Assembly (NCBI GenBank): GCA_027886825.1
Contig: JAPCJS010000002.1
Coordinates: 355-64,354, forward strand
DNA length: 64,000 nt
From: Nitrososphaerota archaeon
GTDB taxonomy: Archaea; Thermoproteota; Nitrososphaeria; Nitrososphaerales; Gagatemarchaeaceae
Direction of reading: 5' to 3'
A program made the translations under genes and the position numbers. A model generated the notes under the pieces. It searched no databases, was not told where the DNA came from, and saw nothing but the letters and a program-made list of their open reading frames with translations. Positions 53,924-58,176 of the stretch are shown in pieces. Every line of letters starts with the position of its first letter. Within the stretch, counting starts at the first letter, position 1.

Positions 53924-55480
53924 CTAGTCCGGCTGTTTCACGACGACCGGCTGTTCATCCTGCGGGGTCCAGGCCTTCTTGGACTTTGCGACCCAGGAGA
54001 ACCTCCTCTGGAGGGAGGTGGTGTAGAGCTTGTTCCAGTCCAGGCCCGCGTAGTCGCACCATGACTTGTAGACCCGGGGGTCGATGTAGTTCTTGAGAGA
54101 GGTGTTGAGGTTGTAGTCCTTGGTCTTCTTGGTGAACTCCACATCCAGCGACATCTTCCTGGCCATGCCCTCCTTCCCCTTTGCTCTGTACTCGGCAAGC
54201 TTCTCCTCCTTCTTCTTCAGGGTCTGCTCCCATGTCTTGGGCGGGGTCCGCTTGTGGTTGCAGAAGATCGCGGCTGAGAGGTTGGCCTCCTTCGCAAAGT
54301 AGCGCTTCTCCAGCTCGTCAGCGTCGCGAACGTCTTTACTACTGAGGCTCTTCTTTGTCTCGAGGGTCGCGTGGTACGTCCTGAAGACCTTCGCCGTCAG
54401 GCCTGGGATGATCTCGGAGAGGAATCGGTTGACCATGCTAGAGGTGACCACATCGAAGATCTCGTCGCTCGGCTTCTTCTTGGCCGTGAAGCGGCGCAGG
54501 TTCTGGACCAGGATCGGCTCGGGGTTGGAGAGAGTCTTGACCCATCTTACACTGTCCTTTCCGAGGAAATCGAACTCTATCCTCGCGTCATCAATCTTGA
54601 CGTGCTCCACCCTCAGCGTGGTTGCGCCGACGGTGTCGGCCTCGTCCTCGTCCTTCTCGTCGCCCACCCTCATTCCCAGCTTGTCGATGAGGTAGCTGAC
54701 CGTGGCGATCTTCCTCTTCTTTTCGTCTCTCGAGGCCATGGCCTCCAGGGTCTTCCGGCGCAGCTTGCCGAGTTGCCCCTCTATCCGAAGGGCCTTGTCG
54801 TACTTGTCCTTGCTCCTCGACTGCTGGATCTCGGAGCTCTCGTGGGGCCAGACGTACTTCTCCCTCCCGGTGAGCGCGTCTATCCACTTGGCGATCCAGA
54901 TCGACTCATGGTCGTGCACGATGGCGCCCCAGGCGCCAGGGGGGACCGGGGAGGACTCATCCAGATTGAGGGTGACGTGCCTCTGCTCCACCCTTGGCTT
55001 CCAGCTGCCCCGGAGCGGGTGCGCTCCCCGTCCCATGAACAGGCCAGGGGGTTCGACCAGCCAGTTGGCTATCTCGATCTCGTTCTCGTCTATCGCCGCC
55101 TTTCCGTACTTCTCCTTCAGCTTCTCCCGGAGCTCCTTCCGGGAGACGGCCTGGCCCTTCTTCTCCTCCTTGCCCATCGCCTCCTTGGTGTGCTTCTCGG
55201 CATCGGCGAGCCTGTAGAACTGGGAAAAGTCGATCTCAGAGAAACTTGCGCCCCTGAACGCCTCAGGGAGCTCCCTGCTGAAGTGCTTCATGAAGTTCGC
55301 GACGAAGACAGGGTCCTGCACGTAGGGGGTGTCCTTCTTCTTGGCGAAGTTGTAGGCCATCTCCTCTGCCATGGGAGACAGACTCACAGGCTCGCCCCTG
55401 ATCGCCACCGTCAGACCCTTCGGTATGTAGGGGTCGGGAAACGCAACCCCGTTGTGTCGCAGGATCTTCCAGACTGGCAT
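53924..55480 (-). CDS. eukaryotic-type DNA topoisomerase IB
   Basis: GNEK-like VGDEKDEDEADTVGATTLRVEHV, AKVFRTYHAT, AIFCNHKR, and the active-site TSLKNYIDPRVY. All match canonical Topo IB blocks. Confidence 0.9.
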   Translation of the reverse strand: MPVWKILRHNGVAFPDPYIPKGLTVAIRGEPVSLSPMAEEMAYNFAKKKDTPYVQDPVFVANFMKHFSRELPEAFRGASFSEIDFSQFYRLADAEKHTKEAMGKEEKKGQAVSRKELREKLKEKYGKAAIDENEIEIANWLVEPPGLFMGRGAHPLRGSWKPRVEQRHVTLNLDESSPVPPGAWGAIVHDHESIWIAKWIDALTGREKYVWPHESSEIQQSRSKDKYDKALRIEGQLGKLRRKTLEAMASRDEKKRKIATVSYLIDKLGMRVGDEKDEDEADTVGATTLRVEHVKIDDARIEFDFLGKDSVRWVKTLSNPEPILVQNLRRFTAKKKPSDEIFDVVTSSMVNRFLSEIIPGLTAKVFRTYHATLETKKSLSSKDVRDADELEKRYFAKEANLSAAIFCNHKRTPPKTWEQTLKKKEEKLAEYRAKGKEGMARKMSLDVEFTKKTKDYNLNTSLKNYIDPRVYKSWCDYAGLDWNKLYTTSLQRRFSWVAKSKKAWTPQDEQPVVVKQPD

Positions 55481-56774: not shown

Positions 56775-56828
56775 GCTTACTCCATCCACGAATGTAGTAA
56801 AATACCCTTGTCGTCAAACGTGCGTGGC

Positions 56829-56942
56829 GGGCCCGTAGCTTAGTTCCCGGATGGGAGAGAAATCAGGTAGAGCATCGGGCTTTTAACCCGAGGGTCAGGA
56901 CGACCGAAACCCCCTAAACGGGTTCGATTCCCGTCGGGCCCG
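56829..56942 (+). tRNA. tRNA-Lys (anticodon UUU) carrying two non-canonical insertions (putative introns)
   Basis: Removing 56846-56865 and 56897-56917 leaves a 73-nt cloverleaf. Acceptor GGGCCCG/CGGGCCC; D-arm GCTT-AGTTGGTA-GAGC; anticodon arm TCGGG-CTTTTAA-CCCGA; variable loop GGGTC; T-arm ACGGG-TTCGATT-CCCGT; discriminator G. Confidence 0.75.
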
Positions 56943-56952
56943 CTCCAAATCC
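56923..56952. repeat. direct repeat copy 1 (tRNA-Lys T-loop to 10 nt past the 3-prime end), att-like
   Basis: ttcgattcccgtcgggcccgctccaaatcc is identical to 57915-57944. Confidence 0.9.
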
Positions 56953-57914
56953 AGTTTCATTAGTTCGTAGAGAGCAAATTGAGCTGTTTCGGCACGAAGG
57001 ATACCGCAGACCTTGTGAAACGGATAATACGCAGCTCATGGGCTCGCGAATTGAGTAAAGTGCCAGACTATTCCCTGAGGGTAAGCGAATCTGAGGTAAG
57101 GCGGTATCTCTTCATGGCTGAACAGGCTCAGAAGCTTGAAGGAGACCTATGGGCCCTTGCAGGGATTGCTCCCGGGGCGGTAATCGCCGACGTAGGGTGC
57201 GGTCCGGCTGCCGTAGCGGTGGTGATGAGCCGAATCGTCGGGCCGAAGGGAAGAGTGATTGGAGTCGACAGAGACGAGAGTGCACTCGCGGCGGCCCGTC
57301 AGGTGACGAAGGAAGCAGGAGCGGCAAACCTCCAGCTACGACTGGGGACGGCAACTTCGACCGGGTTGGAGCCCTCGAGCCTCGACGTCGCGGTGTTGCG
57401 CCACGTTCTTGCTCATAATGGGGGTAAAGAACAGGAGATCGTCAGACACATGGCATCCCTCGTTCGGCCAAAGGGCGCCGTCTACTTAGTGGACATCGAC
57501 CTTACTGCTGCACGGACGCTCGATGATGACCCAGAACTCTTGGACCTTGGGGAAAGGTACAACGACTTTCACCGAGGATTGGGAAATGACACCTCGGTTG
57601 GTCTCCGATTGGGTAAGTTGGTTGTTGGAGCGGGACTTGAGTTGGATCGACACGTCGGTGTCTATCAGATTGTAAGTTTGGTGCCAGGTATTCGACCTCC
57701 CGCTTGGGCTGCTAGGGAAGCAATGCTGGCCGCAGGAGGCATTACGCCTCAAGACGTCTCAAGGTGGCAAGCAGCTTTCGAGCGCTTGGACAAACGAGCC
57801 CTGCGCCCAACCTTGTTCATCCCCCTCTTTATCGCAATCGGACGGCGTAGGACCGAGCAGAGCATCTGACATGCGTCCGGTTGTTTCGATACCAATTCCG
57901 GCTGCGTTTTTCGC
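56953..57914. mobile_element. putative integrated-element remnant bounded by 30-bp tRNA-derived direct repeats
   Basis: A 962-bp segment between the perfect repeats carries only one methyltransferase gene. No integrase is visible. Codon third positions look more A/T-rich than in flanking core genes. Confidence 0.4.
56979..57869 (+). CDS. class I SAM-dependent methyltransferase (cargo between the direct repeats)
   Basis: Motif I is VIADVGCGPAAVAVV, followed by the acidic VIGVDRDE. TTG start, or a later ATG. Confidence 0.8.
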   Translation: MSCFGTKDTADLVKRIIRSSWARELSKVPDYSLRVSESEVRRYLFMAEQAQKLEGDLWALAGIAPGAVIADVGCGPAAVAVVMSRIVGPKGRVIGVDRDESALAAARQVTKEAGAANLQLRLGTATSTGLEPSSLDVAVLRHVLAHNGGKEQEIVRHMASLVRPKGAVYLVDIDLTAARTLDDDPELLDLGERYNDFHRGLGNDTSVGLRLGKLVVGAGLELDRHVGVYQIVSLVPGIRPPAWAAREAMLAAGGITPQDVSRWQAAFERLDKRALRPTLFIPLFIAIGRRRTEQSI

Positions 57915-57944
57915 TTCGATTCCCGTCGGGCCCGCTCCAAATCC
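57915..57944. repeat. direct repeat copy 2, att-like
   Basis: Perfect 30-bp copy of the tRNA-Lys 3-prime end, with no 5-prime tRNA half upstream. Confidence 0.9.
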
Positions 57945-58176
57945 GGTTCGATACCCAGATTCCTTCTTCGAACTGGGTTCCATTGTAGCAAGGAGTAACT
58001 GACATAGGGGATAAAGGGACCACTGAACTCCTGCGCGTAAGCCGCACAAATTGTTAGCGCAGGTCTTGAGCGGCGAGGACGTGGCATAGTCTGCCCTCTC
58101 GATCGAGAGACCTTACCCCACCCATCAGCATGACCTACGAGAGCAATAATAAGCGCTCATTCCATATCAGATCTCT

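Follow-up and report, generated by a model that had tools for sequence, protein, structure and literature searches.

A predicted two-intron tRNA-Lys(UUU) gene in a Gagatemarchaeum-like archaeon

The window, by which we mean the whole 64-kb stretch of DNA analysed, carries a tRNA-Lys(UUU) gene of 114 nt at 56829-56942 (+). The gene contains two short insertions, has G as discriminator and does not encode CCA. Its assignment draws on the sequence itself, on ARAGORN applied to the spliced form and on orthologues. It reads GGGCCCG UA GCUU AG[UUCCCGGAUGGGAGAGAAA]UCAGGUA GAGC A UCGGG CUUUUAA CCCGA GGGUC[AGGACGACCGAAACCCCCUAA]ACGGG UUCGAUU CCCGU CGGGCCC G, with the predicted introns in brackets. Exon 1 (56829-56843, 15 nt) provides the 5' strand of the acceptor stem, U8 and A9, the D-stem 5' strand GCUU, and A14 and G15. 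Intron 1 (56844-56862, 19 nt) interrupts the D-loop at position 15/16 and is placed there by intron-less orthologues and by the geometry of a relaxed bulge-helix-bulge (BHB) motif. Exon 2 (56863-56896, 34 nt) holds the D-loop remainder UCAGGUA, the D-stem 3' strand, the anticodon arm and the variable loop GGGUC. It is separated by intron 2 (56897-56917, 21 nt, position 48/49) from exon 3 (56918-56942, 25 nt), which comprises the T arm ACGGG UUCGAUU CCCGU, the acceptor 3' strand and the discriminator G. Intron 2 shows a full BHB motif, assigned from a hand-built model, a constrained fold and the orthologue L080. All these elements lie on the + strand, as does a TATA-like box, GTAAAATA, at 56797-56804, the centre of which precedes the tRNA 5' end by about 28 nt. 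The anticodon UUU occupies 56882-56884. The anticodon loop CTTTTAA is uninterrupted, so that the canonical 37/38 site carries no intron, just as the preliminary description of this locus had stated. The predicted mature tRNA is 74 nt long and has the D-loop AGUCAGGUA.

Standard tools do not see this gene. ARAGORN makes no call on the raw gene and finds no tRNA anywhere in the 64-kb window, and Rfam at gathering threshold reports no tRNA in the raw window. A permissive Rfam scan in e-value mode returns T-arm fragments only, matched to tmRNA and mascRNA models. These misses are caused by the insertions and are hence no argument against a tRNA. With both insertions deleted, ARAGORN calls a clean tRNA-Lys(ttt) cloverleaf, with the boundaries first proposed as well as with the corrected ones given below. 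Deletion of insertion 1 alone yields a tRNA-Lys with a 26-nt variable region. The earlier claim of a tRNA-Lys(UUU) that folds after removal of two pieces thus holds, as the cloverleaf is called only with pieces deleted. We confirm the gene as genuine, together with the two insertions that it holds.

The assembly is an archaeal MAG of 2.4 Mb with 59.5% GC in 204 contigs and 90.8% completeness. The organism falls within the genus of Ca. Gagatemarchaeum in the Nitrososphaerota (formerly Thaumarchaeota). A relative of the same genus, G001 (PLUF01000102.1), is Candidatus Gagatemarchaeum stordalenia, which NCBI places in Nitrososphaerota, family Gagatemarchaeaceae. A TACK archaeon had been anticipated from the insertions, and the host indeed belongs to the T of TACK, in a thaumarchaeal lineage and not in the Thermoproteales. 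It is probably a mesophile from peat or soil. Adjoining the tRNA gene is a full-length eukaryote-type topoisomerase IB (53924-55480, - strand; PF02919, PF01028, PF14370), an enzyme that we take to be a marker of Thaumarchaeota.

For comparison, orthologues were collected by an exact-pattern scan for the anticodon arm and variable loop, which returned 108 stretches, mostly from Nitrososphaerota MAGs. After deduplication and parsing, 64 distinct orthologues remained. The full-length interrupted gene occurs in 18 related genomes, including the single-contig or few-contig assemblies G006 and G009. Insertion 1 is present in 59 and insertion 2 in 63 of the 64 distinct orthologues, each at the same site, which is more than chance would give. 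Intron lengths range from 16 to 22 nt for intron 1 and from 14 to 21 nt for intron 2; this variation is confined to the loops, and the spacing of helices and bulges is constant. Exons do not change across the orthologues, with exon 2 partly fixed by the search pattern, and stems are altered only by compensation. In the 64-sequence alignment, 94.8% of the cells of the BHB structure and acceptor stem are paired, a value that drops to 28-62% once the partners are displaced by 1-3 columns. Changes on both sides are found at 7 pairs, a number reached by 0 of 500 shuffles, although kinship among the orthologues makes these shuffle statistics overstate independence. All 4 pairs of the intron 1 hairpin covary with changes on both sides. 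For the inner pair of the intron 2 helix (columns 75-87), CG is found in 31 and GC in 27 sequences, so that GG/CC is swapped for GC/GC. Two pairs of the acceptor stem are compensated, C4-G by U-A in 3 sequences and G7-C by U-A in 1. Removal of the introns restores a cloverleaf that matches the intron-less orthologues, in the 74-nt ARAGORN call, in the D-loops of L070 and L083 and in the junction of L080.

The canonical motif has a central helix of 4 bp, which includes the first two bases of the anticodon, and carries its splice sites in the two adjoining 3-nt bulges (PMC4090602). With the 5' cut after position 37, each strand is cut after the second base of its bulge, a rule that we applied to both insertions. 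For intron 2, the motif was drawn by hand from the sequence and then folded under constraint. Its outer helix pairs AACCCG (56885-56890) with CGGGUU (56919-56924) over 6 bp and its central helix pairs AGGG (56891-56894) with CCCU (56912-56915) over 4 bp. The bulges UC|A (56895-56897) and AA|A (56916-56918) lie on opposite strands, and the intron closes its own 2-bp helix, GG (56898-56899) with CC (56910-56911). Intron 2 therefore shows the strict motif of a 4-bp central helix and two 3-nt bulges, and this geometry is kept in 63 sequences. Outer and central helices are invariant across the data set and give no covariation support, partly because the search fixed the exon sequence; the first central-helix pair is an A.G or A.C mismatch in 15 of 63 sequences. 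L080 lacks intron 2 with the exact junction GGGTC|ACGGG. Together, this junction and the motif define the second insertion to the base, at 56897-56917 and position 48/49, where the preliminary description had placed it. No convincing BHB motif had been recognized there at either junction; this no longer stands, given a full motif for intron 2 and a relaxed one for intron 1.

In the constrained fold, the BHB conformer has an energy of -42.2 kcal/mol compared to -44.1 kcal/mol for the MFE structure, a gap of less than 2 kcal/mol, and in the ensemble both the outer and the central helix of intron 2 reach a probability of about 0.25. The BHB fold of intron 2 is not a cloverleaf. In it, the anticodon stem gives its 3' strand (CCCG) and the T stem its 5' strand (CGGG) to a joint helix, so that the precursor becomes a long hairpin. 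As both stems are CGGG/CCCG, this strand swap is cheap. If the shared stem identity were selected, it would make splicing at 48/49 a folding switch or checkpoint, with the cloverleaf committed only after excision, and the stem identity would have co-evolved with intron 2. We regard such a switch as conceivable, though rather unlikely.

Both insertions could instead be retained, as a long class-II-like variable arm and an expanded D-loop hairpin in a functional tRNA of 95 or 114 nt. The MFE fold agrees with this, being a cloverleaf with two extra hairpins, as does the 26-nt variable region that ARAGORN accepts once insertion 1 alone is deleted. The relatives, however, argue for excision. The pairing of GGGT with ACCC, proposed earlier near the second insertion, is present in the MFE fold, but it is broken in relatives, which keep the AGGG/CCCT register of the BHB motif instead. 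In the GGGU/ACCC register, the third pair (columns 70-87) does not form in 33 of 63 sequences, nor does the fourth (columns 71-85) in 17 of 63; by these comparative counts we ruled out the variable-arm pairing of the MFE fold. Lysine tRNAs belong to class I. A conserved stem-loop in the variable region, as class II would have it, is not what the orthologues contain, with the helix so often unpaired and the segment absent in L080. Close relatives lack one or the other insertion precisely, leaving a 5-nt variable loop or a 9-10-nt D-loop, and 3-nt bulges with 4-bp spacing serve no purpose in a variable arm. Retention of the insertions is thus very improbable, and we continue with excision of both.

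The boundaries of intron 1 are given by the orthologues that lack it, which are five of the 64 (L020, L045, L070, L083 and L121). The D-loops of L070 and L083 read AGTCAGGTA, and overall the five loci read AGTCAGGTA or AGCCAGG(A)TA. As these insertion-less D-loops carry CAGG, CAGG belongs to the exon and intron 1 spans 56844-56862 with 19 nt; 56845-56863 is equivalent because of a repeated T. The shift of the boundary changes the length of the mature tRNA to 74 nt, in place of the 73 nt first given.

In its relaxed motif, the D-stem 5' strand GCUU (56838-56841) pairs with the intronic GAGA (56857-56860) in a central helix of 3 bp plus a G.A mismatch. The 5' bulge AG|U (56842-56844) is closed by a hairpin of UCCC (56845-56848) and GGGA (56853-56856) with the loop GGAU. 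The 3' splice site is AA|U (56861-56863). At this site, we found no outer helix between exons, with UA before G10 facing CAGG past the cut, and the motif is classed as relaxed for this reason. Intron 1 does not show the strict motif of a 4-bp central helix with two 3-nt bulges. Among relatives, the central helix has 4 bp in 18 of 59 (with GAGC, GGGU, GGGC or AAGC) and 3 bp in 41 of 59, and in the window sequence it reaches an ensemble probability of only about 0.05, which makes it a weak motif here. The parse 56844-56862 has identical geometry in all 59 sequences with intron 1. With this arrangement, the motif fits the relaxed HBh'/hBH class, in which one bulge is disrupted (PMC4090602, PMC5829648).

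The preliminary description had placed the first insertion at 56846-56865, between positions 17 and 18, with a length of 20 nt, which would leave a 73-nt tRNA with the 8-nt D-loop AGUUGGUA. The existence of the insertion stands, whereas its boundaries move by 2 nt at the 5' and by 3 nt at the 3' end, slightly beyond the 1-2 nt of ambiguity allowed for them. Not only does ARAGORN accept this spliced form as tRNA-Lys(ttt), but bacterial tRNA-Lys genes with the same anticodon arm (L064, L037) have the D-loops AGTTGGTA and AGTCGGTA. Archaeal orthologues without the insertion, however, keep CAGG as exon, and TTAG pairs nowhere with AAAT, so that a central helix at the required distance from both cuts is missing, while the 56844-56862 parse gives one geometry in 59/59 sequences. 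A hand check for a strict BHB, with the original boundaries or with shifts of 1-2 nt, gave no 4-bp central helix at the required spacing. We therefore hold the 17/18 boundaries to be highly unlikely and use 56844-56862 throughout.

Introns at such positions had been said to require a splicing endonuclease of broad specificity, and the search of the genome for a heterotetrameric EndA found two paralogues, one of them with the loop lysine linked to broad specificity. The two EndA-family ORFs encode 185 and 181 aa (PF01974 and PF02778 profile matches). The pair is located on contigs C175 and C25. For the 185-aa protein, the best matches are the catalytic subunits of the Aeropyrum, Sulfolobus and Pyrobaculum heterotetramers (E = 7e-40 to 4e-38). 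In the alignment to A. pernix 3p1z_B it keeps the motifs YEHG...DHAPFIV...VRKQF, which by homology would carry the catalytic Tyr, His and Lys. Its specific loop (CSL/L1), IPKPKDFEFDAP, aligns without gaps to VEKPRGADFEGP of A. pernix, with Lys40 opposite K44, the residue of the A. pernix specific loop that is reported to confer broad specificity (PMC5829648). In the alignment to M. jannaschii 1a79, Ala takes the place of the catalytic His in the 181-aa paralogue, as would be expected of a structural subunit. One presumably catalytic paralogue and one without the catalytic His are what would be expected of the heterotetrameric type, and published surveys assign an (alpha-beta)2 EndA to Thaumarchaeota (PMC4090602, PMC5829648). 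An RtcB ligase is also encoded (562 bits). The genome thus appears to encode a broad-specificity heterotetrameric EndA.

Several observations bear on whether the gene is used. The box GT[A/C]AAATA is found equally far upstream in nearly every orthologue, within flanks that diverge, which suggests that it acts as the promoter. An intact second tRNA-Lys(UUU) would have cast doubt on this copy, but the search of the 90.8%-complete assembly for a further UUU anticodon arm with a T-loop downstream found none. A decaying or unexpressed pseudogene, with the working tRNA-Lys(UUU) in the unassembled ~9% of the genome, is the least credible of the alternatives: the 204 contigs leave room for it, and a 30-nt copy of the 3' end 1 kb downstream, together with a partial copy on contig C151, shows that the locus has been rearranged, yet the interrupted gene is the tRNA-Lys(UUU) match in the 18 related genomes, G006 and G009 among them, with invariant exons, stems changed by compensation and a conserved promoter box.

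The BHB motifs, the exact intron-less alleles and the genes for EndA and RtcB agree with the earlier proposal of two protein-spliced, non-canonical introns. We consider it very probable that this is a functional tRNA-Lys(UUU) gene of a Gagatemarchaeum-like archaeon whose two introns would be spliced by EndA and RtcB. A precursor of about 114 nt would be transcribed from the promoter with the TATA box about 28 nt upstream. Intron 2 would be displayed in a complete BHB through the strand swap between anticodon stem and T stem. In the D-arm, the intronic GAGA would act as a decoy copy of the D-stem 3' strand and pair with the real D-stem 5' strand as the central helix of intron 1, and this relaxed HBh'-like motif would need the broad-specificity heterotetrameric EndA. 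EndA is predicted to excise both introns at the bonds given above, in whatever order, and RtcB to join the exons. The 74-nt product would then receive CCA.

The lysine tRNA is not the only interrupted gene of this genome. Rfam finds 25 tRNA matches, most of them over-long; its match list carries no anticodons. From the Rfam alignments (loci L142-L161), D-loop inserts are seen in tRNA-Arg UCG and tRNA-Gly GCC and variable-region inserts in tRNA-Arg CCG and tRNA-Arg CCU. Anticodon-loop inserts are seen as well, and several genes have two inserts. For the variable-region insert of tRNA-Arg(CCG) (L142), no BHB parse was reached by hand. Across the whole genome, ARAGORN reports no Lys CUU, Glu, Gln, Asn, Cys, Phe, Ile or Met anticodons, among others, and these tRNAs are probably interrupted as well. 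We discarded the intron mode of ARAGORN for the whole genome: it forces insertions into the anticodon loop and produces implausible calls such as Tyr(ata), Asp(atc) and Thr(agt), and is thus unusable for intron positions.

Multi-intron tRNAs are already documented in the phylum, and this gene is one more well-supported case of a feature known from archaea; the finding leaves the known splicing mechanism unchanged. Multiple non-canonical tRNA introns have been described for Thaumarchaeota, for which a clade-specific BHB covariance model was built in tRNAscan-SE 2.0 (PMC8450103). In three Nitrososphaerales genomes, 141 tRNA genes contain 53 non-canonical introns, with 22 genes that have two introns (PMC8450103, Supplementary Table S7). 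The gene described here shares with that catalogue the phylum, short non-canonical BHB introns, two introns per gene and the failure of standard finders. It differs in scope, as the survey covers 11 Thaumarchaeota genomes and splits them by order only (PMC8450103). In a literature search, we found no report of the intron pair 15/16 and 48/49 in tRNA-Lys(UUU).

In Thermoproteales, tRNA-Pro(UGG) of Pyrobaculum islandicum is listed with introns at 25/26, 37/38 and 56/57 (Sugahara et al. 2007/2008, as cited in PMC4090602). As far as that account of the Thermoproteales goes, the likeness consists in several short non-canonical introns, some of them of the relaxed hBH/HBh' type, which are processed there by a loop-bearing heterotetrameric EndA. 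By the same account, those hosts are hyperthermophiles of another phylum, whereas our host is probably a mesophile, lacks the 37/38 intron in this gene and has its introns at other positions. A parallel for intron 1 may be drawn to pre-tRNA-Glu(UUC) of Methanopyrus kandleri, which has a D-loop intron at 20b/21 with a relaxed HBh' motif. Efficient removal of this intron was shown experimentally to require a loop-bearing (alpha-beta)2 EndA (PMC5829648). Both cases share a short D-loop intron and a relaxed motif, with a proper bulge missing at one of the splice sites. The position differs, 15/16 here and 20b/21 there, and in M. kandleri the partner intron is canonical. Moreover, M. kandleri's own EndA has no specific loop, in contrast to the EndA of the genome studied here.

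The gene adds the non-ammonia-oxidising Gagatemarchaeaceae to the lineages with catalogued multi-intron tRNAs. It appears to be the assembly's only tRNA that can read AAA codons, and it is invisible to ARAGORN and the Rfam tRNA model. Annotations of these peat and soil archaea would wrongly lack a lysine tRNA if made without an intron-aware archaeal finder.

The presence of each intron varies among relatives. Within the same genus, G011 (L020) lacks intron 1, while the nearest relatives L012-L018 retain it. In L080, intron 2 is absent and intron 1 is present. L020 and L080 are clean cases, in which the intron was either lost recently or already absent in the ancestor. Other lineages interrupt the same tRNA-Lys(UUU) elsewhere. 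Records of ammonia-oxidiser type (L039, L061, L072 and others) have an intron of about 13 nt at about 22/23 in the D-stem 3' strand, and one other Nitrososphaerota family (L022 = G040, L023 = G033) has a T-loop insertion of about 20 nt. Such turnover of intron positions across lineages is typical of these introns. The intron-less alleles of the same genus and of related records, together with introns at other positions, form a natural series for intron gain and loss.

The 3' end of the gene is also part of a direct repeat. Positions 56923-56956 recur at 57915-57948, with 30 nt perfect (34 nt at 97%), from the T-loop to 10 nt past the tRNA 3' end. The pair flanks a segment of 962 bp, the sole ORF of which (56979-57869) encodes a class I SAM methyltransferase; no integrase was found in this repeat-flanked segment. 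Past the second copy of the repeat, the sequence (CCGGTTCGATACCCAG) corresponds to what natively follows the tRNA in the relatives L029, L065 and L044. Owing to this match, the 962-bp segment appears to have inserted at an att-like site. Orphan 3' ends of tRNA-Lys, GGTCGATTCCCGTCGGGCCCGC, without a tRNA body upstream are found on contig C151 (6264-6290) and in G001, G009, G002, G004 and G015, which suggests that the 3' exon of tRNA-Lys may be a recurrent integration target. With the 48/49 intron close by on its upstream side, the repeated segment itself stays uninterrupted.
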